Assembly (NCBI GenBank): GCA_049668345.1 | Contig: JBATJF010000087.1 | Coordinates: forward strand, 1 to 32,704 | Reading direction: 5' to 3' | Length of the DNA stretch: 32,704 nt | DNA from: Gammaproteobacteria bacterium | Lineage (GTDB): Bacteria; Pseudomonadota; Gammaproteobacteria; UBA9214 | Notes under the pieces: model-generated | What the model was told of the DNA's origin: nothing | What the model saw: only the letters and a program-made list of their open reading frames with translations | Database searches by the model: none | Shown: piece by piece, positions 3,821-29,312 of the stretch | Position numbering within the stretch: the first letter of the stretch is position 1 | How the letters are laid out: the number at the start of each line of letters is the position of its first letter | Translations under genes and position numbers: made by a program

Positions 3821-3895
3821 TGGTGGGCGATACTGGGATTGAACCAGTGACCCCTGCCGTGTGAAGGCAGTGCTCTCCCGCTGAGCTAATCGCCC
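3821..3895 (-). tRNA. tRNA-Val (anticodon CAC), CCA encoded
   Basis: The reverse complement is GGGCGATTAGCTCAGCGGGAGAGCACTGCCTTCACACGGCAGGGGTCACTGGTTCAATCCCAGTATCGCCCACCA. It folds as a cloverleaf: acceptor GGGCGAT/ATCGCCC, D arm GCTC/GAGC, anticodon stem CTGCC/GGCAG with loop TTCACAC, and T arm ACTGG-TTCAATC-CCAGT. Confidence 0.93.
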
Positions 3896-4020: not shown

Positions 4021-4776
4021 ATGCGGGCCACCGCAACCCTGCTTCCGAAAGCCATGCGCCACAGCCAGCTGACAACAGAAACGCGCAGTGATGCACGCCA
4101 GTGCCTGCGGCGCTGTGTGCTGTTCTCGAAGCTGCCCGATGCGCAGTTCGAGCGCATCCTGGAGCATACCCGCGCAGTAGCGCTCGACGAGGGCGATGTG
4201 CTGTTCGAGCAGCACCAGCCGGCGAAGGAGGTCTTCCTGTTGCGCAGCGGACAGGTGAAACTCGCGCTGGTGTCTCCCGAGGGCCATGAGAAGGTCATCG
4301 ACCTGATCTCGCCCGGCGGTTCCTTTGCCGAGGCCATCATGTTTTCCGGCACCCGTGTCTACCCGGTTACGGCCACGGCACTGGTCAGCAGCAGCGTCTG
4401 GGGGGTCAACGCGGGGACCTACGAGGACATCCTGCGGGTATCGACCGATGCCTGTTTCGCGGTGCTGGCGCAGATGAGCCGGCGCCTGCACTGGCAGATC
4501 GCCGAGATCGACCGCCTGACCCTGCACAATGCCGCCTTCCGGGTGATCGCCTATCTGCTGGACCAGGTGCCCAGCACCGACCTGGACGCCAGCGTGATCC
4601 ACCTGGATACGCCCAAGCATGTCATTGCCTCGCGCCTGTCCATCACGCCGGAAACCCTGTCGCGTACCTTCGCCAGGCTGGGCCGGGACGGTTATCTGCA
4701 GATCGAGGACAACGCGGTACGCATACAGGACATCGAGAAACTGCGTACCTACATACGCAACGGCGGTGTCGTCTAG
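4021..4776 (+). CDS. Crp/Fnr-family transcription factor, DNR/NnrR-like (no FNR-type N-terminal Cys cluster)
   Basis: ORF 3979-4776. It has a cNMP-binding-like beta-roll (LFSKLPDAQFERILEHTRAVALDEGDVLFEQHQPAKEVFLLRSGQVKL). The C-terminal HTH is HVIASRLSITPETLSRTFARLGRDGYL, with the FNR-class E-x-x-S-R recognition motif. The start is uncertain (TTG 3979, ATG 4021 or ATG 4054). Confidence 0.85.
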   Translation: MRATATLLPKAMRHSQLTTETRSDARQCLRRCVLFSKLPDAQFERILEHTRAVALDEGDVLFEQHQPAKEVFLLRSGQVKLALVSPEGHEKVIDLISPGGSFAEAIMFSGTRVYPVTATALVSSSVWGVNAGTYEDILRVSTDACFAVLAQMSRRLHWQIAEIDRLTLHNAAFRVIAYLLDQVPSTDLDASVIHLDTPKHVIASRLSITPETLSRTFARLGRDGYLQIEDNAVRIQDIEKLRTYIRNGGVV

Positions 4777-4880: not shown

Positions 4881-5855
4881 TTATGAGGATGTCCGGCTTC
4901 TGGTGGGCGTCACCAGATGGTTGAGATTGACCAGTGACAGTAACAGCATTGCACCGATGCCGTTGTGAGCTGTCACCAGGAGCAGGGGCAGTTCGGCGAG
5001 TACTGCTGAAATACCCAATGCCGCCTGTAAAACCAGAAAGCCGAGTATGCTCACAGCCGTGTTACGCAGGCGGTCCTGTTTCCAGGCCCGGATGGCCAGC
5101 CATCCAAGGTACAGAAGCGTCAACATGGCGCCAAAGCGGTGTGCCATGTGTACGGTTCTCTGTATGCTGCCGGTAACGATCCTGCCCTGCTCATCCACGC
5201 CAAGCCTGTCGAACAGGTTGAATCCCTGCATGAGGTTGGTGAAAGATGCCCAGTCGCCGTTGCAGCCGGGCAGCACTGAGCAGGACGGTCCGGCAAAATC
5301 AGCACTGACCACTGCACCCAGGGCAATCTGTCCGGCCACGACCAGCAGGCCCAGCCGTGCCCAGGGTCTTAGTGTCGATGCGGCGTCGTCAGCGGCGTCT
5401 ATGGTTTCCACCGAACGCTGGCCAATCCACCACAGCAGGGCGAGCATCGTCATGCCGCCGAAAAGGTTACCGAACGTGACGGCAGGTATGTCCGGTGACG
5501 GCGTACTGTATCCCAGTACCGAGAGAAACACAGTCAGGGCAAGGACTGAAAGCGGTGCGAGAAGACCAACACCGGCCGGGCGACGTCCACGCAGGGCCAG
5601 GAGCGTGATAGCCAGAATAATCACGCCCAGCAGGCTGGCCGTGAACCGGTGAACCGCACCTGCCGTGGTGCGAGGTACCAGTCCATGATCCCGGGTCGCG
5701 GGCAGCTGTCCGAAACAGCCCGGCCATTCTTCGCAACCGAGGCCAATGCTTTCAAGACGCAGGTAGGCGCTCAACAGCACAGCCGCCAGTGTCAGTACCA
5801 GTGCCACAAACACAAGCAAGGTGAAAAGGCTGCCAGATTGTGTCCTGTCATTCAT
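4881..5855 (-). CDS. ctaA: Heme A synthase (COX15/CtaA family)
   Basis: 324-aa polytopic membrane protein. It carries the CtaA-type periplasmic Cys pair motif GLGCEEWPGCFG and a second pair (GPSCSVLPGC). Conserved His-containing helices are present (AVHRFTASL, HMAHRFGAM, TAHNGIGAM). Confidence 0.8.
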   Translation of the reverse strand: MNDRTQSGSLFTLLVFVALVLTLAAVLLSAYLRLESIGLGCEEWPGCFGQLPATRDHGLVPRTTAGAVHRFTASLLGVIILAITLLALRGRRPAGVGLLAPLSVLALTVFLSVLGYSTPSPDIPAVTFGNLFGGMTMLALLWWIGQRSVETIDAADDAASTLRPWARLGLLVVAGQIALGAVVSADFAGPSCSVLPGCNGDWASFTNLMQGFNLFDRLGVDEQGRIVTGSIQRTVHMAHRFGAMLTLLYLGWLAIRAWKQDRLRNTAVSILGFLVLQAALGISAVLAELPLLLVTAHNGIGAMLLLSLVNLNHLVTPTRSRTSS

Positions 5856-6054
5856 GGGCCGGGCTTCGTCGCTGTGGGAGTGCCGTAATTACAAGGGGCT
5901 GCGGGCACGGGATTCCTGTTATTACACTGGCTGGACAAGATTGTCAAAAAGCAGGCTGGTAGTTTTATTTTCTAATCGTTATAGTCTCTTACAGCGCGAA
6001 AGGCAGTGTTTTTTCACCTGTCGGTTTTCCTTCGATTGGGTAGTCAATGCGGTG

Positions 6055-7428
6055 ATGCATGAAGAATACGTTTTAGACGTACCTGCTGGCAACCGTCGTC
6101 AGCTGGGCAAAGGCTGGCTGTGGCTGGGAATCATGGCGTTGCTGGGTTCGGGTCTGTTTTCCCTGCTGCTGGTGCTGTCACGTACACCCTACATCCAGGA
6201 CAGCATTCCATGGATTGACTTTTTCCATACGGCACTGGTTGTGCACGTGGACCTGTCGGTGCTGGTGTGGTTTCTGGCGTTTGGCGGCGTACTGTGGACC
6301 CTGAATTCCACCCCGCGTTTCATGTATCTCGGATGGGCAGCGCTGCTGCTGGCCGGACTGGGCGCCGCGCTCATGGTCGTGGCGCCGTTCCTCGGTCCGG
6401 GTAATCCGCTGATGAGCAACTATATCCCGGTATTGCAGACACCGCTCTTTACCGTGGCATTGCTGGGATTCGGCTTTGGAATAACCTTGCTGGTCCTGCG
6501 CGGCATGATCGCCAACCCGCTGGTTGGTTTGCGTATGGAAGGCGCGGGCGCATTGCGCTTTGGTTTGAATACCGCTGCCGTGTCGGCCGTTATGGCGGTG
6601 TTCGCCTTTACCTGGTCGTATCTGGCGATACCCGACACCATCACGGGTAACTACTATTTCGAGTTGCTGTTCTGGGGTGGCGGTCATATGCTGCAATTCA
6701 CCTACACCCTGCTTATGCTGGTGGCCTGGCTCTGGCTGGCATCCGCCTCCGGCGTACATCTGCCGCTGAGTCCGCGGGTGGTATTGGTGTTGTTTGTTTT
6801 CGGGCTAATGGCCGTGTTTATGGCGCCACTGATTTACTATGCCCATCCGGTTCTCTCGGCTGAACATATCAAGCTGTTTACCTGGCTCATGGCCTATGGT
6901 GGCAGTCTGGCGCCCGTGCCACTGGGTCTGGCGGTCTTTTACGGCCTGTTGCGCAGTGCCTCCGCATCCGCATTGCAGCTTCCCTTGCGCTCGGCCCTGT
7001 GGTGCTCGATGATCCTGTTCGGAATCGGCGGTGGTATCGGTTTTATGATCCAGGACAGCAATGTCACCATCCCCGCGCACTATCATGGTTCCATCGTCGG
7101 CGTCACACTGGCCTTCATGGGTTTGACATATCATCTCTTGCCACGCCTGGGATACGCCCGGCCGAACATGAGGTGGGCCGCCATACAGCCTTACGTGTAT
7201 GGCGGTGGTCAGCTGTTGCATGTTCTGGGGCTGGCGTGGTCGGGCGGCTACGGCGTGCAGCGGAAAGTGGCGGGTACGGAGCAGGCTCTTGACGGCCTGG
7301 AAAAGATTCTGGCGATGGGGCTGATGGGCTTTGGCGGGCTGGTTGCTATCATCGGCGGTCTTGTTTTCCTGGTGGTGGTGCTGGCGGCCATGACCAGGGG
7401 GCCACAGTCACAGCAGGGTGCGGCTTGA
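6055..7428 (+). CDS. Divergent heme-copper oxidase subunit-I-like membrane protein lacking the His-His CuB pair
   Basis: ORF 5821-7428. The likely start is ATG 6055, because the upstream 78 codons are Arg/Cys-rich and overlap the divergent ctaA promoter region. It is a ~12-TM protein with HCO-like motifs: FFHTALVVH (helix II), LFWGGGHMLQF (helix VI), TIPAHYHGSIVG (helix X H-x-H heme ligands). The helix VII equivalent reads YYAHPVLS instead of AHH. There is no HH dipeptide anywhere in the ORF. Confidence 0.75.
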   Translation: MHEEYVLDVPAGNRRQLGKGWLWLGIMALLGSGLFSLLLVLSRTPYIQDSIPWIDFFHTALVVHVDLSVLVWFLAFGGVLWTLNSTPRFMYLGWAALLLAGLGAALMVVAPFLGPGNPLMSNYIPVLQTPLFTVALLGFGFGITLLVLRGMIANPLVGLRMEGAGALRFGLNTAAVSAVMAVFAFTWSYLAIPDTITGNYYFELLFWGGGHMLQFTYTLLMLVAWLWLASASGVHLPLSPRVVLVLFVFGLMAVFMAPLIYYAHPVLSAEHIKLFTWLMAYGGSLAPVPLGLAVFYGLLRSASASALQLPLRSALWCSMILFGIGGGIGFMIQDSNVTIPAHYHGSIVGVTLAFMGLTYHLLPRLGYARPNMRWAAIQPYVYGGGQLLHVLGLAWSGGYGVQRKVAGTEQALDGLEKILAMGLMGFGGLVAIIGGLVFLVVVLAAMTRGPQSQQGAA

Positions 7429-7454
7429 TACGCCCGGGGATCAATGCAGCGTCA

Positions 7455-7820
7455 ATGAATCTGCCGTGCAGCCGACGGACAGGATTTGCCCTGCTCGCAC
7501 TGCCGCTGGTCTTCATACTGGCCGGAGTGCCACCGAGCGAAGCGGATCTCCCGGGCCCGCAACCATCACCAGCCCTGCACAGCTCACCAACGGTGACTGA
7601 AGCCGGCGCGAATATCGCCGGTGCTGTTGCGGGCCTGACTGCGCCTGCCGCGGGCGCTTCGGTAACGAAATTTCCCGCTCCGGTGGCGAAAGAAACGCCA
7701 GTCAATGACGAACGCGAGGATTTGACGGCGTTCTTTTTCATCGGTGCGGTAATTGACGTGCTGCTGGTGGCGGCCTTCCTGATCTGGGCCGTCGGACAGT
7801 GGCGCAAGGCGAATAAATAG
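7455..7820 (+). CDS. Hypothetical secreted, C-terminally membrane-anchored Pro/Ala-rich protein
   Basis: ORF 7425-7820; TTG 7425 overlaps the upstream stop as TTGA. ATG 7455 gives a signal-peptide-like N-terminus (MNLPCSRRTGFALLALPLVFILAGV). The C-terminal TM is FFFIGAVIDVLLVAAFLIWAV. Confidence 0.5.
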   Translation: MNLPCSRRTGFALLALPLVFILAGVPPSEADLPGPQPSPALHSSPTVTEAGANIAGAVAGLTAPAAGASVTKFPAPVAKETPVNDEREDLTAFFFIGAVIDVLLVAAFLIWAVGQWRKANK

Positions 7821-7833
7821 GAGCTTGAGACCG

Positions 7834-8469
7834 ATGTCTGAAACTACACCCAGGCCGTACGGAACACTGCTGATTTTCCTTTTCCTGTGCCTGCTGCTGG
7901 CAGCGGTTTACTACTGGATGCTGCCTGGCAAGTCGGTTCCGGATGAACTCCAGGGCGTGCTCCGCCCCGGGCCGACTCAATTGCAGGCGTTCGAGCTGAT
8001 CGATCAAAACCGGCAGCCCTTTGGCCTGGAACGCCTGAAAGGGAAGTGGAGTCTGGTTTTCTTCGGCTATACATCCTGCCCTGACATCTGTCCAACGACA
8101 CTCTCGACCCTGAACGGGGTGGTCAAGAAACTGCGAGCCGATCCGCAGGGGCTTGCCGGCATGCAGGTCGTATTCGTTACCGTGGATCCCCGGCGCGACA
8201 CAGCGGATGTCATAGACGGCTACCTGAAGTACTTCAATGAAGCCTTCCTGGGTGTCACCGGCGCGCAGCAGGATATCGACAGCCTGGCCCGGCAGTTCGG
8301 CGCCGGCTACGTAACCGAGCCGGAAACCGTCGCTGGTCAATACCTGGTCAGCCACACCAGTTCGATTTTCCTGGTCGATCCGCGCGGACGCCTGCTTGCC
8401 GCATTTTCCCCGCCGCATGACCCCGGCACCATTGCCGACCAGTTTCGGCAGATTCGTGCGCTTTTCTGA
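7834..8469 (+). CDS. SCO1/SenC-family copper chaperone (thioredoxin fold)
   Basis: AGGAG at 7819-7823 precedes ATG 7834. There is an N-terminal TM. The SCO motifs are WSLVFFGYTSCPDICPTT (C-x3-C), VVFVTVDPRRD and YLVSHTSSIFLVDPRGRL (Cu-ligand His). Confidence 0.88.
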   Translation: MSETTPRPYGTLLIFLFLCLLLAAVYYWMLPGKSVPDELQGVLRPGPTQLQAFELIDQNRQPFGLERLKGKWSLVFFGYTSCPDICPTTLSTLNGVVKKLRADPQGLAGMQVVFVTVDPRRDTADVIDGYLKYFNEAFLGVTGAQQDIDSLARQFGAGYVTEPETVAGQYLVSHTSSIFLVDPRGRLLAAFSPPHDPGTIADQFRQIRALF

Positions 8470-8879
8470 TGCATTTGTCCGCCGGCAGGTTTATCCCCGC
8501 TGTTCTCGTGGCTCTGGTTCTCCTGGCCGGTTGCGGCCAGGAGATCAAGTACACACCGGCTGAACTGGGTGCATTCATAGACGAGTTGAAGGCAAATGGC
8601 GTTGACGGTTCGTTGCTGATACGGGCGCCTCTCAACGAGGACATGGAGTACATCGCGGAATATACAATAGCAAGGTATGCAAGCACGCGTGTCGTATCCT
8701 TCTTCAAATTCAAGGATGCTGAAAAGGCTGAGGCGGGCCTGCGGGAGGCCTTGAAGAATGACAAGTTGTCCGGACAGGCAAGCAATGCGTCATTTGTCAT
8801 GGCGGCGACATTTTACCCCCCGGATGACGAGGCGGTAGCGAAGATAAAAGCGCGGTTTCTCGCGCACAAATTTGACTGA
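8469..8879 (+). CDS. Hypothetical lipoprotein
   Basis: The start overlaps the upstream stop (TGATG). It has a lipobox (VLLAGC|G) after a signal peptide. No recognisable catalytic motif. Confidence 0.6.
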   Translation: MHLSAGRFIPAVLVALVLLAGCGQEIKYTPAELGAFIDELKANGVDGSLLIRAPLNEDMEYIAEYTIARYASTRVVSFFKFKDAEKAEAGLREALKNDKLSGQASNASFVMAATFYPPDDEAVAKIKARFLAHKFD

Positions 8880-9640
8880 TGAAAAAGACCCGCGCTCTGC
8901 CTGTGCTGCTAGTCCTGTGCATTGCAGTTGCCGGTGTCGTATACCTGGTGACGCCGCAGCGCGATGCAGCGCAGGAGTGGGAATCGCGTAAACCCCGTTT
9001 CCAGCAGGCGGCCGTGCATGCCGAGCCTCTGGTGAGGGCCATCACCGCGTACGTGTCTGCGTTCGGCCATCCGCCATCGGCACTCGCCGACCTTGTTCCA
9101 GGCTTTATTCAGGAGCTGCCCGCCACGGGGCTGCAGGAATGCAGCAGGTTCGAATACCGGTCTCTCGTGCACAAACAGGGGTCGATCGTGTGGTATGACC
9201 TGGGTTCAAGGCAGGGCGAGCCCTATTCCGGGGCGAGCCATTACAGCGATGGTGATCCGGGTCATGCCATCCTGGTGTTCGTACTGGATGCGAAGGGGCA
9301 AATCACCAGTGCCCTGATCGACCGGATACCGAAAGGCCGCGATCCGCTGGATTTTGATCCGCAGCGCTGGAAGGAAGGTGAGAACCGCATCGAGATGGCG
9401 CTGGCGCTGGCTGATACCTACAGACTGTATGGCATGCCCAGAGACGTGTTCGAGCGTCTGCTGGGGGCGCCTGACGGCAGTCGGTCCGTGCACGGCACGC
9501 CCTGGGAACTGCGTATCAATTGCCCGACCGGTCTGCTCAACCACGATAGCTTTGTTTACTGGCCCAGCGGGGAGTATCCGCAGCATCTGTATGGCGGTTT
9601 TACCGAGTCCGTTGGCAGATGGGTCTATGTCCACAGCTGA
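8879..9640 (+). CDS. Hypothetical N-terminally anchored (signal-anchor) protein
   Basis: The start overlaps the upstream stop (TGATG). The N-terminus is MKKTRALPVLLVLCIAVAGVVYLV. The composition is protein-like and no motif was recognised. Confidence 0.55.
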   Translation: MKKTRALPVLLVLCIAVAGVVYLVTPQRDAAQEWESRKPRFQQAAVHAEPLVRAITAYVSAFGHPPSALADLVPGFIQELPATGLQECSRFEYRSLVHKQGSIVWYDLGSRQGEPYSGASHYSDGDPGHAILVFVLDAKGQITSALIDRIPKGRDPLDFDPQRWKEGENRIEMALALADTYRLYGMPRDVFERLLGAPDGSRSVHGTPWELRINCPTGLLNHDSFVYWPSGEYPQHLYGGFTESVGRWVYVHS

Positions 9641-9768
9641 ATTTCCATCTCTGGAGTGGAACGCTTTCCGGCGGCAGATATGCTAGCATTGCTGCTGCGA
9701 AAAGATGCAGGATGCCGGCCCGGAATGCGGCCCGGCCATCCGCTCGGAGTCAATGTCGGAGGTCCGCC

Positions 9769-10221
9769 ATGTTCGGTTTCAAGAGTTCTTCTGCCAGGGA
9801 TAGCTCGCATTGCCTGCTGAAGGAGGTGGGCATCGCCGAGATCAACAAACAGCACCTGCGCCTGGCGAGTTATGCCGTGGATTTCAGCCTGATCGTGGAA
9901 GAGTTGTCCGGCAGGGAAGTCACCAACCAGGACTGGCGTCGTATCGACGCGCTGTTCAACAAGATCATGCGCTACGTCGAGACGCATTTCTCGGAGGAAG
10001 AGGCCTTGATGCGCGAATACGGCTACCCGGACTATGCCGCGCACAAGAAGCTCCATGACAAATTTTCCGCGGAGATGATAAAACTGCAGTCGGACATCAA
10101 TAACCGGAATATCAAGTTCAAGAAGAAAATGAGCAGCCTGCTCTGGGACTGGCTGTACCACCACATCAATGAAGTCGATTACCAGTACCGGGAATTCTTC
10201 CAGAGCAAGGGACTCAGCTGA
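9769..10221 (+). CDS. Hemerythrin-like di-iron domain protein (bacteriohemerythrin)
   Basis: GGAGG at 9757-9761 sits 7 nt before ATG 9769. The hemerythrin ligand pattern is present: EINKQH, ETHFSEEE, AAHKKLHDKF, WLYHHINEVD. Confidence 0.8.
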   Translation: MFGFKSSSARDSSHCLLKEVGIAEINKQHLRLASYAVDFSLIVEELSGREVTNQDWRRIDALFNKIMRYVETHFSEEEALMREYGYPDYAAHKKLHDKFSAEMIKLQSDINNRNIKFKKKMSSLLWDWLYHHINEVDYQYREFFQSKGLS

Positions 10222-10229
10222 ACTGTCGT

Positions 10230-11267
10230 TTATTTCCTGCCGGCGGCCAGGCTTTCGCGCAAAGCGTCCAGCGATTCAACCGGCCGGGAACTGCCTTCCG
10301 ATTCATAAACACCATCCTGGAACGATGCCGTGAGCGGCGTGTTTTCCGGTTCCGCGTTCATGGCAAAATAAAGAATGCCGCTGTTGCCATCGGTATCGTT
10401 GAAACGGATTTCGGCGCATGGTGCGGAGGACGCTTGCCCACCGCCCCCGGGTCGCTTGCCGCAGGCGGTTGGTGCGTCCGGCCATATCACCATGCTGCCG
10501 GGAGGCAACGCTGACTCAAGCCAGTCCACCAGGCTGACGTCACGCATGCCCTTGCCCGGTGACGCAACCGGAAGTGACCGGACGGTATCCGGTACCGGTT
10601 TCCGGGCATCAGTATCGAGTCCCGCCGTATCCACATGCCACACGGCGCCATTATTCCCGGTTTGAACACGCAGCCGTTCGACACCCTTGAAGGTCTTTGA
10701 CCTGACTGTGAAGCTGACCTGGCCCCGGCCGGTTATGCTGACCTGTTCATAGACTGGCGCGCGGTCACCCTCGAAATCAAGGTGGCGGCAGTCCACCGGG
10801 CCGTTGGGCGCACAGGAATCCGGCTTCTCCACCGGGTCGATCATCGATTCCGGCAAATGGCCGGGGTCCCAGCTGGCGAAATGACCGCAGGCATCGAAGC
10901 TGATATTGAAGGCATGTGTTGTTGCGATCAGGGTATGGTCGTCCGGCACTTCGTACCTGTCCTGCTCACCCAGGGCGACTGTCCTTGCACTGTCACTGTC
11001 CCGGCCGCCCGCTGCCCACAGCATCCGCCACCCGGCATCCCGGGGGTCGTCTGAATGTGAGTCGGCGGTGTGTTGCGACCGGCACATCACGACGGCATAT
11101 TCACCCAGATAATTGAAAGGAATATTGCGGAAATAGCGCACGACCTTGAGACTGAATTGCGGTCCGTCATAGAACACATGCTCATCCAGCCGTCGATTGG
11201 GCTCGCCGCAGGCGAGCAGCAGGGCAACAAGCATCATTACACCGGCATACAGGACTGCTCTTTTCAT
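10230..11267 (-). CDS. Hypothetical lipoprotein
   Basis: ORF 10230-11531. ATG 11267 overlaps the stop of the SirB-like gene (ATGA). It gives MKRAVLYAGVMMLVALLLAC|G, a signal peptide plus lipobox. The longer N-terminal extension overlaps the SirB-like gene out of frame. Confidence 0.6.
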   Translation of the reverse strand: MKRAVLYAGVMMLVALLLACGEPNRRLDEHVFYDGPQFSLKVVRYFRNIPFNYLGEYAVVMCRSQHTADSHSDDPRDAGWRMLWAAGGRDSDSARTVALGEQDRYEVPDDHTLIATTHAFNISFDACGHFASWDPGHLPESMIDPVEKPDSCAPNGPVDCRHLDFEGDRAPVYEQVSITGRGQVSFTVRSKTFKGVERLRVQTGNNGAVWHVDTAGLDTDARKPVPDTVRSLPVASPGKGMRDVSLVDWLESALPPGSMVIWPDAPTACGKRPGGGGQASSAPCAEIRFNDTDGNSGILYFAMNAEPENTPLTASFQDGVYESEGSSRPVESLDALRESLAAGRK

Positions 11268-12013: not shown

Positions 12014-12517
12014 CTAGCGGCTGAAGAAGCTGCCGGTCTCGGAATTGAAATTGATGAACAGCAGCTGGGCCGGTTCCAGGGTCACGGTTTCCTCGTCGGT
12101 ATGCGTGGGGCCCTTCACGTGCACGTCGTCGTTCATTTCCACGCCCAGCCGGTGTTCGCCGACGGGCACCTTGGCACTCAGGTAGACATCCACCCCGAGG
12201 TCGTTGTACAGGCCGGGCGGGTTGAAGACCTTCCCCGCAATTTGCTTGCCGTCCAGCAGCAAACTGACAGTGACAGGGGAACGTTCACGCGGGCAGTCCA
12301 TGGGCGCGCGCATGTTGGGCGGCAATCTGGCCAGTTCTTCCTGGGACAGGGTGTGGCACGGCTCGATGCGTGCACCGGCATGGGAATAGGCCACCGTGAC
12401 GAGCGCCTGGTCAGGTTTCAGGTGCGTGTAGGCGGGCGCGGCCGAGAAATACCACACCAGCAGCATGAAGATGCTGTAGTTCAGGGCCTGCAGCAGATAG
12501 CGCAGCGCCTCAGGCAT
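12014..12517 (-). CDS. Hypothetical membrane-anchored protein, last gene of the HCO operon
   Basis: ORF 12014-12748. ATG 12517 overlaps the upstream gene's stop by 8 nt. It reads MPEALRYLLQALNYSIFMLLVWYFSAAPAY (TM), followed by a ~130-aa beta-rich soluble part. The longer N-terminal extension is Ala/Arg-rich and overlaps the upstream CDS. Confidence 0.55.
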   Translation of the reverse strand: MPEALRYLLQALNYSIFMLLVWYFSAAPAYTHLKPDQALVTVAYSHAGARIEPCHTLSQEELARLPPNMRAPMDCPRERSPVTVSLLLDGKQIAGKVFNPPGLYNDLGVDVYLSAKVPVGEHRLGVEMNDDVHVKGPTHTDEETVTLEPAQLLFINFNSETGSFFSR

Positions 12518-14060
12518 TGCGCGCTTCCCGGGGGTGCGGATCGTCCAGTCCGTGCGTGGCGATCTGGCGCTGGAAGTCGGCAAGCTCGCGGCGCAGCCTG
12601 GCGCCGTCGGTGACGGCGCCCTGGAATATCCTGATGCGTTCGCGACTGGCGCGTTGCCGCAGCACCGGCTTGCGCAGACCCTCGAAGCGCTGATCCATCC
12701 AGGCATTGCCCAGGCGGTAGAAGCAGTCGCCGCCGCGGCAGCCTGCAATCATGACGCCACCTGCACCGTGCCGTTGCGCGTATTCCACGAGGGTCAGTGG
12801 CAGCATGCCCGTGCAGAACAGGCTCAGTACCGCGACGTTGTCGGCCTTCAGCTCGCTGATATCGGCGGCGTTGTCGCAGCCGAAAATCATGATGCCGTTA
12901 TCGTCCTTGAGTTCTGCCAGGGCGGACCGGGTCCGTGTCCGGATTTCGTCAATCGGGAACTGGGGCATATCGATGCCTGTTTCCAGCGGCGTTGCATTCC
13001 TGAACGGGTTGGATGAGTAGCAGGAGGCGACACAGATACCGCAGGCGGCACACTGGGCGGGATTGACAATGACTTCGTTTTTCCAGCGTGCCCCGTCGGT
13101 GCGTGCCTGTACCGAGATGGCGTCGAAGGGGCAGTCCTCGGCGCACTGGCCGCAGCCGTTGCATTGATCGAGATGAACCTCGGCCGCGGGGCCGGTTTTT
13201 CTGGGCGGCAGCCAGGGCAGGATGATCAGCAGCAGGGTGACGCTCGTGGTCAGTATCCAGACCTGGTTTGCCGACCACGTGTCGAGCAGGGGGTAGACGT
13301 TGAGATAGAACCAGTCGAGTCGCAGTACCGCGGGTACCCTGGAAAGGTCTGCGGGCGCATGGCTGGTCGCCGGCATCAGCAATGACAGTGCGAGCAGCGC
13401 CAGGAAACTGCCCACGGCCAGGCCACGGGGAGCACTGATCTCGACATGGGAGAGCCGCTTGACGTGCAGCCAGATGACACCGATCAGCATGATCGGCTGT
13501 CCCAGCAGGTGCAGGAAACCCATCAGGGTGAACATCCGGTCGGTGAGCTGACCCGCCAGGAAATCACGGGCCATGGAACCGGTCATCACCGGCACCGCAT
13601 CCATGAGCAGGGAGGAGAGCACCGCGACGTACAGGCCCAGTTCATCCCACACCAGCCAGTAACCGGTGATGCCCAGGGTGATAACGACCCACAGGGTCGG
13701 TATGCCGGTAACCCAGGACCACCAGCGGAAGCCATGGTAACGGCCGAGGGCGAATTCGCGAAACATGTGCAGCAGGATGGTGACGACTGCGGCATCCGAG
13801 GCATAGCGGTGCAGGCTGCGCATGATGCCACCCGCGTACCACTGGTGGTGGGTTATTTTCTCTACCGAGCTGTATGCGCCGGCGATGCTGGTGTCGAAGA
13901 AGATGAACAGGTAGAGGCCGCTGACCAGCACGACCCAGAAGAAGAAAAAGGTCAGTGTTCCGAGATGATAGAGTGGATTCCAGGCCGTTCCAAACGACAG
14001 GTTGAACCATTCCTCGAGCAGGAGGTAACTGCGCTTGACGGGATTAACGCGTTTGTTCAC
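12510..14060 (-). CDS. Fusion protein: cytochrome b(6)-like di-heme membrane domain, two [4Fe-4S] ferredoxin motifs and an MvhD/FlpD-like domain
   Basis: ORF 12510-14213. The first 50 codons are Arg-rich and overlap the senC-like gene, so GTG 14060 is the proposed start (uncertain).
- Cytochrome b helix B: IMRSLHRYASDAAVVTILLHMFREF.
- Cytochrome b helix D: FLHLLGQPIMLIGVIWLHV.
- A GYWLVWDE segment matches the cytochrome b GY.LPW region.
- Fe-S motifs: CNGCGQCAEDCP and CAACGICVASC.
- MvhD-like tail: IMIFGCDNAA...LFCTGML...GAGGVMIAGCRGGDCFYRLGN. Confidence 0.8.
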   Translation of the reverse strand: MNKRVNPVKRSYLLLEEWFNLSFGTAWNPLYHLGTLTFFFFWVVLVSGLYLFIFFDTSIAGAYSSVEKITHHQWYAGGIMRSLHRYASDAAVVTILLHMFREFALGRYHGFRWWSWVTGIPTLWVVITLGITGYWLVWDELGLYVAVLSSLLMDAVPVMTGSMARDFLAGQLTDRMFTLMGFLHLLGQPIMLIGVIWLHVKRLSHVEISAPRGLAVGSFLALLALSLLMPATSHAPADLSRVPAVLRLDWFYLNVYPLLDTWSANQVWILTTSVTLLLIILPWLPPRKTGPAAEVHLDQCNGCGQCAEDCPFDAISVQARTDGARWKNEVIVNPAQCAACGICVASCYSSNPFRNATPLETGIDMPQFPIDEIRTRTRSALAELKDDNGIMIFGCDNAADISELKADNVAVLSLFCTGMLPLTLVEYAQRHGAGGVMIAGCRGGDCFYRLGNAWMDQRFEGLRKPVLRQRASRERIRIFQGAVTDGARLRRELADFQRQIATHGLDDPHPREARNA

Positions 14061-14175
14061 GGATAGTCGTCTCTGGGTTTCACCGGTGTGCGAAGCAGGC
14101 CGCACGTGCAGGGTCTTGCAGGTGATTGTACCGCCAGAGCCTAATCGATGACGGGAAAGTCGTCCTTGATATGTC

Positions 14176-15027
14176 TCAAGAGTGAGCCGAGCGCCGGCCG
14201 TGCCTGACTTCACGCGCCAGGAGCACGATCCCGATCAGTATGATGGACCCGCCGATCACCATGCCGATGAACAGCGAGTAGTCGAAATAGTAGCCGTCCC
14301 GTGCAGGATCGTAGGTGGTGCAGAAGAAGTTGACCTTGTCGATCAGTTCGGACAGCAGGCCCTGGTTCGGCTTGGGTCGTCCGAGCACGAGCTCCTTGAG
14401 TGGCTCGACCAGTATCGGCGTCTCGAACACCTCGCCGTAAACCTGCCGGTAGACATGTCCCTCGGCGTCGATTACCGTGGCCTGCGTGATGTGGTCGAAG
14501 CCATTGGGTGATGCGTAGAACTCGAATCCAAGGTCCTTGCTCAGGGCCTTGACGGTATCCGGGCTGGCGCTGAGCAGGTACCACCCCCGGTCATCGATTC
14601 CCTGTGTCCGCGCGAAATGGATCATCGCCTGCGGGTTATCGTTGTAGGCATCGAAGCCCAGCACAGCGACGTTGAAGCTGTCTTCACCCAGGGCCTTGCG
14701 GGCCTTGTCGACCACCTTGGCGAGATGGCGGGTGGTCATGGGACAGATCTGGTAGCAGCTGGTATAGATCAGGCTCAGCACCAGCGGCTTGCCGCGCAGG
14801 TCGTCCAGGGTCAGGGCGCGGCTCTCGTGGTCGGTCAGGCGGTGGTTGCCCAGTACGCGGCCGATGGCGTCCTGGCTGCGCTGCAGGGCTTCCTTGTAGC
14901 GGAACGCCTGGACCGGGTCCTGCGGCTGTATAGCGTCGACCGGGCCGGGTTCTGCGGCGGCAGCCGGAACAAGCGCCGAGCAGAGTAATGCAAGGAGCAG
15001 GGCAAGAGGTCTGGATGAGTACCGCAT
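14176..15027 (-). CDS. SCO1/SenC-family copper chaperone with a C-terminal extension and TM anchor
   Basis: ORF 14176-15051; ATG 15027 gives the signal peptide MRYSSRPLALLLALLCSALVPAAAA. SCO motifs are PLVLSLIYTSCYQICP (C-x3-C) and FDHITQATVIDAEGHV. There is an extra ~70-aa tail with the TM FIGMVIGGSIILIGIVLLA. Confidence 0.85.
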   Translation of the reverse strand: MRYSSRPLALLLALLCSALVPAAAAEPGPVDAIQPQDPVQAFRYKEALQRSQDAIGRVLGNHRLTDHESRALTLDDLRGKPLVLSLIYTSCYQICPMTTRHLAKVVDKARKALGEDSFNVAVLGFDAYNDNPQAMIHFARTQGIDDRGWYLLSASPDTVKALSKDLGFEFYASPNGFDHITQATVIDAEGHVYRQVYGEVFETPILVEPLKELVLGRPKPNQGLLSELIDKVNFFCTTYDPARDGYYFDYSLFIGMVIGGSIILIGIVLLAREVRHGRRSAHS

Positions 15028-15065
15028 GATTGTGTGACTCGGGGCGGACAACGCCTGCCACGGTA

Positions 15066-15977
15066 TCAGCCAATCAACGTGGCGTCGAGTACGGCGAATA
15101 CCAGCAACACGATCAACTGTACCAGGGAGGCAAAAAAGGCGCGCATGCCGTTGCCGGGCGAGGTGTCCTTCACCAGCAGCAGGCTGCGATAGATGAAATA
15201 GCCGCCCCCGATAAGGGCGCCGGCCAGGTACAGCCAGCCGAGACCGAAGAAAAACGGCAGGACGGATACGCCGGTCAGCAGCAGCGTGTTGGCCAGCACC
15301 ACCCGGGCGGCCGCCGTGTTACCCACCTGCACCGGCAGCATGGGCACGCCGACGGCCTCGTAATCCTTGTGCCGCGCGATGGCCAGGCTCCAGAAGTGGG
15401 GCGGCGTCCACAGGAACAGGACAACGGCCAGGATGAGCGGTACCGCGCCCAGGTGGGGGTCGACCACGGCCGCGCCGGCCAGCACGGCAAAACTGCCCGA
15501 GGCGCCGCCGATCACGATATTCATTGATGTGCGGCGTTTCAGCCACACGGTATAGACGATGGCATAGAAGAAGGCGCCGAGAAAGATATACAGGGCGGCC
15601 ATGCCGTTAAGCAGCCAGCCGGCGGTGCCCACGCCGGCCAGCAGCATGGCACCGATCAGCAGCAGCCACCAGCGGCTGTGCACAAAGGCGCCGGTCACGA
15701 AGGGCCGGTCGACGGTGCGGCGCATGCGTGCGTCGATATCGGTTTCGTAATACTGGTTAAAGGCGCCCGCACTGCCGGCGGCCAGTAATACGGTGATCCC
15801 CAGTACCAGCACCTGCCAGGTGGCTACCGACTGCCCGGGGGTCACGATCAGGGTCACCACGGAGGTGAGGGCCATCACGACGCCGATGCGGAACTTGAAA
15901 AGATTCGACAGCTGATGCAACGTCGCCGACAAATCAAACGGTTGTCCGATGGCGCCCTCTATGAGTTGTCTCTGCAT
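15066..15977 (-). CDS. ctaB: Protoheme IX farnesyltransferase (heme O synthase, CtaB/CyoE)
   Basis: 303-aa UbiA-family polytopic protein. It carries NQYYETDIDARMRRTVDRP (the CtaB N..D..iD..M.RT..RP motif) and a second Asp-rich region. Confidence 0.88.
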   Translation of the reverse strand: MQRQLIEGAIGQPFDLSATLHQLSNLFKFRIGVVMALTSVVTLIVTPGQSVATWQVLVLGITVLLAAGSAGAFNQYYETDIDARMRRTVDRPFVTGAFVHSRWWLLLIGAMLLAGVGTAGWLLNGMAALYIFLGAFFYAIVYTVWLKRRTSMNIVIGGASGSFAVLAGAAVVDPHLGAVPLILAVVLFLWTPPHFWSLAIARHKDYEAVGVPMLPVQVGNTAAARVVLANTLLLTGVSVLPFFFGLGWLYLAGALIGGGYFIYRSLLLVKDTSPGNGMRAFFASLVQLIVLLVFAVLDATLIG

Positions 15978-16000
15978 GTTCGCGTACCCGGATGTTTAAT

Positions 16001-16030
16001 GCGGGGCGGACATGGTGCCATCCGCCCCGC
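16001..16030 (-). other. Intra-operon GC-rich hairpin between HCO subunit I and ctaB (possible attenuator or mRNA-processing element)
   Basis: GCGGGGCGGA (16001-16010) pairs perfectly with TCCGCCCCGC (16021-16030) across a 10-nt loop. On the minus strand it is followed by ATTAAACATCC, so there is no clean U-tract. Confidence 0.4.
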
Positions 16031-16050
16031 CTGGGCCCGGGTCCGGCTGC

Positions 16051-17775
16051 CTAGCTGAGCGGCCAGACCGAGGACAGATACTTCCAGTTGATGAAGTAAT
16101 AGACGACGAAGGAAACCAGCAGCAGCATCGCCAGGGCAAAGGTGCCCGGGGCTTCAAAACCGGCCGAACCGTGCTCCTCAACCGGCTTCGCCATGGGCAG
16201 GATTTCCGGTACCGCCGAGTAGGTGCCCGACGACAGCGGGAAACCGAAGCTCTGCAGCAGACCGGCGGATTCATCCAGCTTCTTGCCGAACACAAGCGAT
16301 CCCACGGTGATGAGCAGAAAGGCGCCGCCGGCGACCACGGCCAGGACGGCGCCGATACCGGCGATGCCCATCATGGTGTAGGCCATGCCCGAGTACTCAA
16401 AGCTCAGCGCCGCTCCGGTGAAGTCCATATCCCAGTGACGTCGCGAGACCCCCAGCGTGCCCGCACCCAGCATGAACAGGATCAGGATCGTCATGCCGCC
16501 GCCGAACAGATAGGGCTGCCATTTGGCCAGCGTGGGCAGGATCATCTTGCGCCGGAACAGTACCGGAATAAGGTAGAAGGTCAGTCCCATGAAGGTCAGG
16601 GTGGTACCGACCGCCACGGTGGCGTGGAAGTGGGCGGGGACGTAGATCGTGTTGTGGATAATCAGGTTGATCTGCTCGGTTCCCATCACCACACCCGTGA
16701 TACCGCCGATAAATCCGAAAATGAGGATAGAGAGGAAGGTGGAGGAGAACGCCGGATTACCCCACGGTGCCTTGCGCAGCCATTCGAACATGCCGCGGGT
16801 ATAGCCCTTCTTGCGCAGGGCAATTTCCATGGAGCCGGGCACGGTCAGTCCATGGATCATGCTGGCCAGGACCGCCAGGTACATGGCGTAGCTGGTGTTG
16901 AATATCTTCCATTCAGCGCTGATGCCCGGGTCCACCAGGATGTGGTGGGCGCTGGCCAGCTGCAGGAACAAGATGTAGAGCAGGAAGGCGAAACGGCTCA
17001 CTTTTTCCGACATGGGGCGGGCGCCGAGCGTGAGTCCGGCCACCAGGTACCAGACCGATACATGCGCGGCGACGTTGATCTGCTGGGACGAATGGCCCAT
17101 CCCCCACCAGATGACGCGGTACATTTCCGCATCGATGTGCCCGATGTAGCCGATCGACCACAGGAAGGTCGGGATCAGGATGATGGCGCCGCTGGCAATG
17201 GTGAATACCGCGATAATGGCGGCGGTCATTGCCCCGAAGGTGACCAGCGGAATGGATCCCTCATAGGTGTGCTCGTCCTTCGCGACGACCAGTGTGCCGA
17301 AGAAGACGAAGCAGCCGATCAGGGCGCCCACTGCAAACAGGATCAGGCCCAGGTAAAAATGCGGTGCCGCCTGCATGGGAACATAGGACGTCATCATGAC
17401 ACTGGAATTGCCCTGGAAGACGGCGACGTTGGTCGTGACCGCGCCGATCAGCATCAGGGCGAACCCCAGCCAGGCCCAGCGCGGGGCGGCCAGCCGGCAC
17501 CGCAGCAGGGTCGATGACGCGAAATAGAGAATCGCGATTTCGAAGAAGATGATCCAGAAGATCAGCGCATCGATACCGTGGGCGGTCAGGAACATGTAGA
17601 ACTGGTCAGCAGGCAGCAGGTGCACCGCGGGCCAGCGTGTCAGTGCCACGCCGAGCGCCAGCAGGCCGGCCACCAGCAGGGCGACGGCGGCGGCCACCGC
17701 GTTGGCCTTCATCAGGCTTTCCGCGTTTCTGTCGAAATACAGGCCCGAGTCGGGACAGAGTCTAAAGTTTGCCAT
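16051..17775 (-). CDS. Heme-copper oxidase superfamily subunit I, B-family-like, with the cross-link Tyr replaced by Gln (candidate NO reductase catalytic subunit)
   Basis: 574 aa; AAGGAG sits 9 nt upstream of ATG 17775. Ligands are H66 (LTAHGIDA), H228 (WWGMGHSSQQ), H277-H278 (ASAHHILV) and H382/H384 (VPAHFHATV). The spacing nearly matches Thermus ba3 numbering. The residue at H228+4 is Gln232, not Tyr. Confidence 0.85.
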   Translation of the reverse strand: MANFRLCPDSGLYFDRNAESLMKANAVAAAVALLVAGLLALGVALTRWPAVHLLPADQFYMFLTAHGIDALIFWIIFFEIAILYFASSTLLRCRLAAPRWAWLGFALMLIGAVTTNVAVFQGNSSVMMTSYVPMQAAPHFYLGLILFAVGALIGCFVFFGTLVVAKDEHTYEGSIPLVTFGAMTAAIIAVFTIASGAIILIPTFLWSIGYIGHIDAEMYRVIWWGMGHSSQQINVAAHVSVWYLVAGLTLGARPMSEKVSRFAFLLYILFLQLASAHHILVDPGISAEWKIFNTSYAMYLAVLASMIHGLTVPGSMEIALRKKGYTRGMFEWLRKAPWGNPAFSSTFLSILIFGFIGGITGVVMGTEQINLIIHNTIYVPAHFHATVAVGTTLTFMGLTFYLIPVLFRRKMILPTLAKWQPYLFGGGMTILILFMLGAGTLGVSRRHWDMDFTGAALSFEYSGMAYTMMGIAGIGAVLAVVAGGAFLLITVGSLVFGKKLDESAGLLQSFGFPLSSGTYSAVPEILPMAKPVEEHGSAGFEAPGTFALAMLLLVSFVVYYFINWKYLSSVWPLS

Positions 17776-17781
17776 GTCTCA

Positions 17782-18324
17782 TCACTCCTTAACGTAGATT
17801 CTGCCGAGCATGGTATGGTGGCCAATGCCGCAGAATTCGTTACAGACCACGCCATACTCACCGGCGACATCGGGTGTAATGTTCAGCACCATTTCATAGC
17901 CAGGAACCACCTGCATATTGATGTTGACGGGCTGCAGCGAGAAGCCGTGCTGCCAGTCCATGGATGACAGGTGCAGGCGGTAGGTCTTGTCCTTTTCCAG
18001 TTCCAGGATCGGCCACCATTGCCACAAACGCCCCAGCATGTAGATGTCGCTGCCAGCCGGCGGATGCACAACCGGGATCTTCTGTTCGGTTTCGGTACGG
18101 ACGGTATACTGGTCGATCATGGCCTGGACCTTGGCGCCAAACGCAGCGGGCGTGGTTTGATAGGCCTCGGTAGACAGGTTCTGTTTCCCGTAGACGTGCC
18201 AGAACGGCATCATGAAAAACAGGATCAGGCACCATATCAGCGCGATGGCGATCCAGACGATCTCCTGGCGTCCAACGGGCACCTTCCACCAGATGCGATC
18301 GGCGGGCGGTAAATAGGAAGTCAT
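17782..18324 (-). CDS. HCO subunit II, single TM plus cupredoxin domain with a complete CuA site
   Basis: 180 aa; AGGAGG lies upstream of ATG 18324. The TM is IVWIAIALIWCLILFFMMPFW. The CuA signature H-X34-C-X-E-X-C-X3-H-X2-M is present exactly (DWQH...[34]...CNEFCGIGHHTM). Confidence 0.88.
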   Translation of the reverse strand: MTSYLPPADRIWWKVPVGRQEIVWIAIALIWCLILFFMMPFWHVYGKQNLSTEAYQTTPAAFGAKVQAMIDQYTVRTETEQKIPVVHPPAGSDIYMLGRLWQWWPILELEKDKTYRLHLSSMDWQHGFSLQPVNINMQVVPGYEMVLNITPDVAGEYGVVCNEFCGIGHHTMLGRIYVKE

Positions 18325-18348
18325 GGCCGGTTTTCCTCCTGGGCGTCG

Positions 18349-18516
18349 TTATTGGGCAACGGGTAAGGTGGCGATTTCCATAATGCCCCAGACGATGTAG
18401 AACACCGTGGGCATAGCGACACCGATGAACAGCAGCAGGAACGGGTTCTCCAGCAGTGATTGCATCGCCGGGATGCGTTCTTCTTCTTCGCGGGGTTTAT
18501 TACCTTGATTAGCCAT
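18349..18516 (-). CDS. Small single-TM protein, first gene of the HCO operon (analogous in position to ba3 subunit IIa)
   Basis: AAGGAGAG sits 5 nt before ATG 18516, which is internal to ORF 18349-18552. It reads MANQGNKPREEEERIPAMQSLLENPFLLLFIGVAMPTVFYIVWGIMEI. Confidence 0.6.
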   Translation of the reverse strand: MANQGNKPREEEERIPAMQSLLENPFLLLFIGVAMPTVFYIVWGIMEIATLPVAQ

Positions 18517-18607
18517 GGAACTCTCCTTTGAGGAACGCCGTTTGACGGGCAATCATTTGGTATGTGACCAATTGTCGCAATCATCGTGAATGCGCGCTGA
18601 ATACTCC

Positions 18608-18621
18608 TTGATATATGTCAA
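18608..18621. promoter_or_regulatory. FNR/DNR-type box TTGATATATGTCAA upstream of the HCO operon
   Basis: 9/10 match to TTGAT-N4-ATCAA. Its centre is 98 nt upstream of ATG 18516. A GATGAT -10-like hexamer (18585-18580, minus strand) lies about 32 nt downstream of the box centre, which fits a class II (-41.5) arrangement. Confidence 0.65.
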
Positions 18622-19312
18622 GACGCTATTCAAGCAGAACAGGCCTTGCGCTGACACGAGCATTGTTCAGCACCGGCAATGTCGCTGGGCCAGCAGACCG
18701 GGTTGGCCGGGCCTGTGTTTCCTGCCTTAGCGGTTCAGGCAGCCTGCGCCGGTTGTGGAGGTGTTACATACGTTCCGATCCACGTGCCACGGGTGCAGTA
18801 TGCTATCAGCGAGCTGGGCTGTGCCTGCCAGCCGCCGGATTCGTCCGCCGGGGCGCGTCGCAGTTCCGGGCCGGTGGATCGGGCAGGGTCGGGATGTATC
18901 CGCTTTACCGCGCGCCGTTAACGGGGGCGGGCCATGTGTGCTGGTGTCGGGTTTTACTGTGCGCGTTGAGCAATCGGCATTTGGCACAAAGCGGCCGGTA
19001 TTACTCGCGGCAGTCACTGTACGACAAGACCTGGCTCCCTGCAGGCAATTGAGATTCGGGGTAGCAAGCAACAGGAAAAAAATTATCTCTGGAATTGTAA
19101 ACGCCCGGATTATCAGCGCTAAGCTGTACACGGTATGCGGCTGGCCGCACCCGGGGCGAAACAGGCCGGGCAGCGTGGCTGCATGAGCCGGATACCTACC
19201 GGCATGCTTCCGGTCGCCGGTCGCGACAAACAGCAATCAGGAACTATCCGCTGGCTTATTTATCCAATCTGCTCGATACCGGCCGGGGTAGACGATACGG
19301 GAGTATGGCGTC

Positions 19313-20266
19313 ATGAATTTGTCAGTAAAGGAAAACATCTATCTGCAGCGTGAACAGCTTGCGCGCATGCTGCATGAGCCGCTTGCGCAGCTGGCCGGCC
19401 ACTGCGCACCGGCCTGGGGCGATCGCCAGAAACTCAATGCCGTGCTGCTGAAGGGCTTCCCCAGCATCCCGCATTGCAGCTATCTTTACTGTGTCGGCCC
19501 GGATGGTGTGCAGATTTCAGACAATATTGGCGAGCACGGCGTGGCAGCCGGGTATTTCGGGCGCGACCGCTCCCAGCGACCCTACATGAAGGAGTCGGTG
19601 CCGATCTGGGGATTCCTGCTCTCGGATGCCTACATCAGTCTTTCCGAGCACCGGCCCTCGCTCACGGCCCTGGGGGTCGTGCGCGACGGTTCCGGTACCC
19701 TCGGCTACGTAGGGGCCGATTTCGACCTGCGCAACCTGCCGGCGACATCGAAGCTCTACGAGGAATCCGCGATCTGGCGACAGATCAAGGGTGATCCGGC
19801 CATTCGCGGGGTGGTGTTTCAGCAGCAGCGCATCGAGAGTCCGATGGATCGGCATCTCGAACAGGCGCTGTCCATCCTCGAGGAATTGCTGACCCTGCGC
19901 GGCGTATTCCAGTGCCAGATCCATTTCTCCAGCAGCCAGGCCACCATCTGGACGATCGACGACCCGTTCCGTTACCGCATTCTCGATCACGAAATGCTGA
20001 GCGACCCGGATATCTGCCTTGTATACCCGCCGTGCGACTATCCCGCCGCTGCCGCCACTCCGCAGGACGCCGTCGCGCGCGTCCTGGAGATGCTTCACCC
20101 ACTGCGCATGACCGATGAGAACCTCTACTTGCGCATGTTCTCGATCAACATCTTCAACGGCATGATCAGCCTGACGTTCTCCTGCGACGGTTCGCACTAT
20201 ATGCGCTATGACGAATTCCTCGCCAAGAACACCGCGTTCTGGTTCGGGGCCGCCGCCTGCGCCTGA
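19313..20266 (+). CDS. Hypothetical cytoplasmic protein with an N-terminal Cache/PDC-like sensor-fold signature
   Basis: 317 aa with no TM or signal peptide. The segment GRDRSQRPYMKESVPIWGFLLSDAYISLSEHRPSLTALGVVRDGSGTLGYVGADFDLRNL resembles the Cache/PDC core (R.yf..., s.py.s..t....it...pv....g.lGv.g.D..l..l). The C-terminal ~140 aa are unassigned. Confidence 0.6.
   Translation: MNLSVKENIYLQREQLARMLHEPLAQLAGHCAPAWGDRQKLNAVLLKGFPSIPHCSYLYCVGPDGVQISDNIGEHGVAAGYFGRDRSQRPYMKESVPIWGFLLSDAYISLSEHRPSLTALGVVRDGSGTLGYVGADFDLRNLPATSKLYEESAIWRQIKGDPAIRGVVFQQQRIESPMDRHLEQALSILEELLTLRGVFQCQIHFSSSQATIWTIDDPFRYRILDHEMLSDPDICLVYPPCDYPAAAATPQDAVARVLEMLHPLRMTDENLYLRMFSINIFNGMISLTFSCDGSHYMRYDEFLAKNTAFWFGAAACA

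Positions 20267-27533: not shown

Positions 27534-29312
<1,779 letters not shown>

Follow-up and report, generated by a model that had tools for sequence, protein, structure and literature searches.

A putative eNOR-type nitric oxide reductase operon with a conserved accessory gene set in a gammaproteobacterial denitrification island

The 32,704-nt contig JBATJF010000087.1 of a metagenome-assembled gammaproteobacterium, hereafter the window, contains a seven-gene operon built around subunits I and II of a heme-copper enzyme. We conclude with good confidence that this operon encodes a nitric oxide (NO) reductase of the eNOR family together with cofactor-maturation and accessory genes, and that it lies within a DNR/FNR-controlled denitrification island. 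The eNOR family, reportedly described by Hemp and Gennis in 2008, is already known and biochemically validated; on this reading the window operon is a further member of it and not a new kind of enzyme. The surprise for specialists is thus low, and what interest remains attaches to the conserved accessory genes and to the extent of the mis-annotation.

A preliminary description of the window had proposed a non-canonical NO reductase from the active-site residues of subunit I. We found each residue that it named in place, namely H66, H228, Q232, Y267, H277, H278, H382 and H384, and located the HSSQQ stretch at nt 17094-17080. Its comparison with Thermus ba3 numbering was borne out by alignment, in which the Thermus ligands 72/233/282/283/384/386 correspond to 66/228/277/278/382/384. 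Q232 aligns with Thermus ba3 Tyr237, the site of the cross-linked tyrosine in A- and B-family enzymes, and R445/R446 align with ba3 R449/R450. Conservation was assessed on orthologue loci that represent the best 80 from one scan of genome contigs, with 66-92% identity to the window subunit I; the characterized eNORs are not among these 80. The subunit I alignment comprised these 80 GTDB species genomes, three cluster representatives and the window protein (n = 84). All six histidines, Q231, Q232, N234, R445 and R446 are invariant in 84/84 sequences, while Y243, Y267, S305 and H308 are conserved in 83, the remaining one being a gap. The motif GHxxQQ(I/V)N was present in every cluster representative down to about 41% identity, a haloarchaeon included. 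Among the best 80 loci, which span Gamma-, Beta- and Alphaproteobacteria, Magnetococcales and Bacteroidota, the nearest belong to metagenome-assembled genomes (MAGs) of Thiohalobacter and Thiogranum (89-92% identity), and by likeness to these the host may be a Thiohalobacter/Thiogranum-like sulfur oxidiser.

The residue at the tyrosine site separates the known families. Glutamine had been named in the preliminary description as the eNOR-like state, and it is printed as such in the literature: eNOR has Q, sNOR and CuANOR (bNOR) have N, cNOR and qNOR have E and the O2 reductases have Tyr (PMC8756737 Table A4). Furthermore, gNOR has Asp in place of one ligand His and a subunit II without CuA ligands (PMC8756737, PMC11214002), nNOR combines a cNOR-like Glu with His/Met ligation of the low-spin heme (PMC11214002), and sNOR has lost the equivalent of ba3 Ser309 that eNOR and bNOR retain (Murali et al. 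2024, PMC11214002). Purified eNOR from Rhodothermus marinus reduces NO but not O2 and contains heme As (Murali et al. 2024, PMC11214002).

Family placement was also examined with a neighbour-joining tree of subunit I (37 sequences, 536 columns, 100 bootstraps). The window protein did not fall inside the true ba3 O2 reductases but in a Gln-Gln clade with 90% bootstrap, and Thermus ba3 formed a separate clade with all GHP(L/V/I)VYFW proteins (100% bootstrap). Proteins from Asgard and Thermoproteota archaea that carry Gln-Tyr branch between the two, a position that fits the O2-reducing 'K family' described as a neighbour of eNOR (bioRxiv 592808). Plasmid-borne candidates from Geobacillus and Deinococcus, considered as sNOR references, were rejected as canonical GHP(L/I)VYFW B-type oxidases. 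Outside the tree, a homologue on a Thermus thermophilus NAR1 plasmid shares 44% identity, the sequence GHGAQQVN and an H-F-K on helix X. The latter corresponds to the His/Lys low-spin heme ligation described for some eNORs (Murali et al. 2024, PMC11214002), so that an eNOR-specific variant is found in a relative of the window protein.

Another NO reductase derived from the B family, that is sNOR, bNOR, nNOR or gNOR, would equally lack the tyrosine on a B-type scaffold, and the tree held no references for any of these families. The known sNOR clusters moreover have the layout norSY-senC-orf1, and the window operon likewise includes a SenC gene. The residues nevertheless make this assignment highly improbable. 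For sNOR and bNOR position 232 would be Asn and not Gln, and the Ser309 equivalent that sNOR has lost is present as S305. We rejected gNOR, with its Asp and its CuA-less subunit II, on the three B-site histidines and the full CuA site, and nNOR, cNOR and qNOR on Gln232 in place of Glu, the bis-His ligation by H66/H384, as opposed to His/Met in nNOR, and the CuA subunit.

Kinship to oxidases is nonetheless evident. The closest structures to subunit I in the Protein Data Bank (PDB) are the ba3 oxidases of Aquifex and Thermus (E ~1e-40), and the sequence search of the PDB with subunit I gave no significant NorB match and no cbb3 chain. An identical protein is named 'MAG: cbb3-type cytochrome c oxidase subunit I [Gammaproteobacteria bacterium]' at NCBI. 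Together with the CuA subunit, the K-channel analogue and the heme O/A synthases, all of them oxidase-like, with FNR boxes that control high-affinity oxidases too, and with a nearly invariant Tyr267, these observations could be read as a specialised ba3-like O2 reductase for microoxic respiration, either without the canonical tyrosine or with Tyr267 as a cbb3-like cross-link partner. We regard this as very unlikely, since an invariant Gln stands where ba3 has its tyrosine, four residues beyond the first B-site histidine, the protein lies outside the ba3 clade, and none of several donors supported O2 reduction by purified eNOR (PMC11214002). The cbb3 (C-family) identity of the public records was likewise rejected, given a leucine at the cbb3 tyrosine position, a CuA cupredoxin as the partner subunit, where cbb3 enzymes have the cytochrome c subunits CcoO and CcoP, and the lack of a cbb3 match in the PDB search.

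The preliminary description had itself raised a C-family-style role of Tyr267 as a caveat. In cbb3 oxidases the migrated cross-link tyrosine lies six residues before the HH pair (P. stutzeri Y251, H257/H258). Here this position is Leu271, with L in 81/84 and I in 2/84 sequences, and Tyr267, ten residues before the pair, aligns with ba3 Phe272. Tyr267 also occurs in P0132, P0133, P0134 and P0149, Gln-Tyr relatives in which the canonical tyrosine is retained; as the two co-occur there, Tyr267 probably does not represent a compensatory migration. From sequence alone, the leucine at the cbb3 position and the co-occurrence with a canonical tyrosine argue against the caveat, and an alternative cross-link through Tyr267 is unlikely. 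The residue would instead be a proton-channel or packing residue, approximately one helix turn deeper than the cbb3 tyrosine.

The partner subunit supports the same placement in the eNOR family. Its CuA motif is exact, as previously read: H126-X34-C161-X-E163-X-C165-X3-H169-X2-M172. In the alignment of 79 subunit II orthologues H126, C161, E163, C165, H169 and M172 are invariant, and E21, which precedes the transmembrane helix, is present in 78. The closest solved relative is Thermus ba3 subunit II (4e-14). In subunit I, the equivalents of the ba3 residues Y248, S261, S309 and T315 are kept as Y243, S256, S305 and T311, and T312 is replaced by H308.

Overall, the window enzyme resembles the eNOR family in its B-family-like subunit I with six His, Gln at the tyrosine site, a CuA subunit II and a K-channel analogue that includes the Ser309 equivalent, as well as in the heme O synthase and Sco1 genes of the operon and CtaA nearby. 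For eNORs, CuA subunits and an analogue of the K-channel have been noted, and their operons often contain CtaA genes (PMC11214002). With Thermus thermophilus ba3 (PDB 1EHK, 1XME) the window protein shares the ligand spacing, the gene order small transmembrane subunit-II-I and equivalents of R449/R450, Y248, S261, S309 and T315. It differs from this O2 reducer in Tyr237 to Gln232, Tyr244 to Val/Ile and Thr312 to His, and in belonging to a separate clade. The cNOR NorBC (P. aeruginosa 3O0R) has in common with the window enzyme the superfamily, the overall reaction and a polar residue other than Tyr four positions after the first B-site His (Glu in cNOR, Gln here), whereas it has a cytochrome c subunit instead of CuA, C-family kinship and no cytoplasmic proton channel.

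The closest described gene cluster is that of Ferrigenium straubiae KS, in which the eNOR operon reads hypothetical, eNOR II, eNOR I, heme o synthase, Sco1, cytochrome b/Fe-S fusion, hypothetical and a COX1-like 'eNOR scaffold protein' (bioRxiv 10.64898/2026.01.22.701106). Compared by the published gene list, the order in the window is identical for the first seven genes. The Ferrigenium cytochrome b fusion, however, has FAD and NAD(P)H domains, whereas the window fusion ends MvhD-like, and Ferrigenium additionally has a second cytochrome b/Fe-S gene and PerM.

The seven co-directional open reading frames (ORFs) were found where the preliminary description had put them, on the minus strand from 18516 to 12014 (Table 1). 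Its account of tight or overlapping spacing applies to most junctions; the gaps in operon order are 24, 6, 73, 14, ~115 and -8 nt, and those of 73 nt between subunit I and ctaB and of ~115 nt between sco and the cytochrome b fusion depart from it. The latter gap results from the start of the fusion gene. Its longest ORF, 12510-14213, encodes 567 aa, and judging by orthologue N-termini the start is most likely GTG 14060 (516 aa) and not 14213. Orientation and spacing are consistent with co-transcription of the seven genes. Scans for terminators and sigma-70 promoters across the operon gave counts that were not above shuffled expectation and therefore carry no information on its boundaries. An FNR-like box TTGATATGTCTCAA with one imperfect half-site lies at 14166-14179, where it overlaps the sco stop codon. 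From this place in the ~115-nt gap, it could serve the last two genes of the operon as an internal promoter.

Table 1 Features of the window, with coordinates, strand and supporting evidence.
Feature	Position (nt)	Strand	Evidence
Single-transmembrane protein, 55 aa	18349-18516	-	ATG start, AGGAG 8 nt upstream; one predicted transmembrane helix
Subunit II of the putative eNOR, 180 aa	17782-18324	-	COX2/CoxB match; one transmembrane helix and cupredoxin domain, complete CuA site
Subunit I of the putative eNOR, 574 aa	16051-17775	-	Pfam COX1 E = 4.5e-63
Heme O synthase (CtaB/CyoE), 303 aa	15066-15977	-	TIGR01473 7.4e-71, 239 bits (cutoff 210)
SCO1/SenC copper chaperone, 291 aa	14176-15051	-	Pfam SCO1-SenC 1.1e-13; N- and C-terminal transmembrane helices
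Cytochrome b/Fe-S/MvhD fusion	12510-14060	-	Pfam Cytochrome_B (b6/ExtP-like), two 4Fe-4S motifs and FlpD/MvhD
167-aa protein	12014-12517	-	N-terminal helix and Ig-like beta-sandwich (AlphaFold2 model, predicted local distance difference test (pLDDT) score 89)
CuB-less heme-copper subunit I paralogue	6055-7428 (ORF 5821-7428, likely start 6055)	+	Pfam COX1 4.7e-11
Heme A synthase CtaA/Cox15	4881-5855	-	Pfam COX15-CtaA 2.1e-41
Crp/FNR-family regulator	~4021-4776	+	Pfam cNMP_binding 5.7e-16, HTH_Crp_2 5.1e-12
nir cluster: nirS (27534-29273), TP_methylase, nirC-like, nirF-like, nirDL/G/H-like, nirJ-like, nirN-like	29273 to 20320	-	Pfam Cytochrom_D1, NirDL-like HTH, radical SAM, TP_methylase
NosR/NirI-like gene	29347-30975		FMN-binding/4Fe-4S membrane protein

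The operon is widely conserved. Its order is kept in 52 of the 57 loci, out of 80, that were informative in having enough downstream sequence. A gene of the 55-aa type stands upstream of subunit II in 75/80 loci, and by this position the 55-aa protein is a likely counterpart of ba3 subunit IIa. Heme O synthase occupies the same position in 65/80 loci, and SCO1/SenC (67/80), the cytochrome b/Fe-S fusion (60/80) and the 167-aa gene (62/80) recur to a similar extent. Domain scans with Pfam and NCBIfam gave no family match for the 55-aa and 167-aa proteins. All 874 homologues of the latter are named hypothetical and none has a Pfam domain; C54 and C75 are invariant among its orthologues, and Foldseek of its AlphaFold2 model against the PDB found no match at E <= 0.001, only generic beta-sandwiches. 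In the fusion protein we found Cys motifs at C351-361 and C388-398 plus four more Cys. The operon SCO protein is atypical, with its weak SCO1-SenC match and an additional predicted C-terminal transmembrane helix.

The regulatory context agrees with a denitrification function. The FNR/DNR-type box TTGATATATGTCAA that had been noted ahead of the operon lies at 18608-18621, its centre ~98 nt upstream of the first-gene ATG. In the whole window the pattern TTGAYNNNNRTCAA has three matches against 0.10 expected, a number reached in 0/100 shuffles. The other two matches are perfect TTGAT-N4-ATCAA boxes, at 29337-29350 upstream of nirS and at 31009-31022 upstream of the NosR/NirI-like gene, which suggests that the eNOR operon, nirS and the NosR/NirI-like gene belong to one putative regulon. 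Scanning 73 genomes within 300 nt of the orthologous first gene, we found TTGA-N6-TCAA upstream in 47, where the background rate is 0.03 per 300 nt. A Crp/FNR regulator encoded in the window carries E-x-x-S-R in its recognition helix and lacks a four-Cys cluster of the FNR type; these features suggest a DNR/NNR-type regulator responding to NO or low O2. The nirS/heme d1 context reported earlier is real and adjoins the promoter side of the operon, and the cluster would be the source of the NO substrate.

The reach of the nir linkage bears on a further reading, in which an enzyme of the eNOR clade serves a purpose other than respiratory NO reduction, be it solely the detoxification of NO, a different N-oxide reaction or the disposal of electrons via the cytochrome b/Fe-S/MvhD partner. 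A cd1 nir gene was found within 10 kb in only 22/80 loci, turnover of the R. marinus enzyme is low at 0.68 NO per second (PMC11214002), and the conserved accessories, namely the cytochrome b fusion, the 167-aa protein and a CuB-less paralogue, leave room for such a role. In the window, however, the operon stands beside the nirS/heme d1 genes and has FNR-type boxes in common with them. Most autotrophic denitrifying replicates of Ferrigenium have strongly higher subunit II transcript levels than the microoxic ones, and both eNOR subunits were detected in the proteome (bioRxiv 10.64898/2026.01.22.701106). R. marinus forms nitrous oxide (N2O) and its genome has no other NO reductase (PMC11214002). 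We therefore consider a non-respiratory role very unlikely and favour the respiratory NO reductase.

Several points weigh against a respiratory eNOR. The subunit I tree was built without sNOR, bNOR, gNOR, nNOR, cNOR and qNOR references, and membership is argued from signature residues, operon architecture and literature descriptions, not from direct comparison with the R. marinus or M. magnetotacticum enzymes. NO reductase function in this host would follow by homology to the purified R. marinus enzyme, and the metal at the B site may be Fe or Cu. The rest of the genome may hold a cNOR or qNOR, in which case the eNOR would be auxiliary or detoxifying. Finally, because heme A synthesis needs O2, the enzyme may be limited to microoxic conditions.

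Homology to characterized heme-copper enzymes allows a four-step mechanism to be proposed. When O2 is low or NO is present, a regulator of the Crp/FNR type, for which the gene at ~4021-4776 is the candidate, would bind the TTGAT-N4-GTCAA box and activate the operon. Periplasmic cytochrome c would then reduce CuA of subunit II, and electrons would pass via the bis-His low-spin heme (H66/H384) to the binuclear site, which comprises a high-spin heme (H382) and a metal on H228, H277 and H278. Because Gln232 occupies the position of the cross-linked tyrosine, the four-electron O2 chemistry would be lost and the site would catalyze 2 NO + 2 e- + 2 H+ -> N2O + H2O, an activity that has been measured with purified R. 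marinus eNOR. Protons would probably be drawn from the cytoplasm through a K-channel analogue of subunit II E21 and subunit I T311, H308, S305, S256, Y243 and perhaps Y267; such cytoplasmic uptake would make NO reduction electrogenic. CtaB and the nearby CtaA would supply a modified heme O/A, and Sco would load the CuA copper.

The genes around this core include a second heme-copper protein. The preliminary description had reported no norCB or norZ, which holds for the window; it had not mentioned a CuB-less heme-copper homologue, CtaA and the Crp/FNR regulator, all three of which are present. The paralogue gave no match at E <= 1 in a sequence search against the PDB. By hhalign it matches eNOR subunit I with 99.8% probability, and its AlphaFold2 model (pLDDT 81.6, predicted template modelling score 0.87) has ba3 subunit I as best Foldseek match, with a template modelling score of 0.71-0.74. 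It keeps the low-spin His pair H64/H344, the high-spin H342, the propionate R/K pair and the first B-site His H211. As Leu/Ile replace the HH pair and Phe stands at the tyrosine site, the protein is without a CuB/FeB site. Its more than 7,000 database relatives are all named oxidase subunit I or hypothetical. In 37/50 loci the paralogue is directly downstream of the 167-aa gene. This position and an assignment to KEGG K02274 (cytochrome c oxidase subunit I) make it the probable equivalent of what the Ferrigenium preprint calls 'eNOR scaffold protein'. Unlike in the usual eNOR operons, the window paralogue is detached: it lies ~4.6 kb from the operon on the opposite strand, as the first gene of its own plus-strand cluster.

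It is tempting to see in the fusion, the 167-aa protein and the CuB-less paralogue, together with eNOR, an undescribed respiratory module and not mere assembly factors. Such a module might couple NO reduction to the quinone pool or to a low-potential carrier of the cytoplasm, or provide electrons or O2 for anaerobic heme A synthesis. We hold this idea to be doubtful. If true, eNOR denitrification would have an energy-coupling or maturation route without counterpart in cNOR and qNOR systems.

The window protein and thousands of relatives are publicly annotated as cbb3-type or subunit I cytochrome c oxidases, so that this genome would appear to lack an NO reductase in gene-based surveys. Once the eNOR is recognised, the organism would count as a likely complete denitrifier or producer of N2O. 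Across several phyla, eNOR is accompanied by FNR/DNR-type control and a fixed accessory gene set, and these accessory genes are concrete targets for studying eNOR assembly and electron supply.

Two plasmid loci carry relatives. On T. thermophilus NAR1 plasmid 4 (L082, NZ_LR027520.1), genes for a 41-aa protein, a CuA subunit II and a subunit I annotated as cbb3-type oxidase occupy 8307-10668. This eNOR-type set, whose second low-spin heme ligand is Lys, adjoins nirS, a multicopper oxidase and an Rrf2 regulator. The megaplasmid of Thermomicrobium roseum DSM 5159 (L085) encodes at 5980-9619 a GHGAQQVN subunit I with 43% identity to the window protein, followed by an unusually long 'heme o synthase' of ~600 aa that may be a fusion with another heme-modifying domain.

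In the window, the cluster that follows the paralogue (7425-10221, plus strand) encodes a 131-aa protein with two transmembrane helices, a canonical SCO1/SenC (Pfam 2e-41), a 136-aa lipoprotein-like protein, a 253-aa protein and a hemerythrin; CtaA and the Crp/FNR regulator adjoin it. Hemerythrin genes recur near eNOR clusters, with 60-88% identity in loci L003, L004, L011, L015, L021 and L025, and on a Defluviimonas plasmid (L081) directly after the 167-aa homologue. On the promoter side of the operon, ~690 nt (18622-19312) with no convincing ORF and no Rfam match separate the eNOR promoter box from a divergent gene at 19313-20266 (+), whose 317-aa product matches no Pfam family and has counterparts in none of the 80 related loci. 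The Rfam scan of the window gave one tRNA and no other match. The tRNA gene is at 3824-3895 (-), and near it ~1 kb of lower G+C (0.50 vs ~0.60) at 2001-3000 may mark the island edge.

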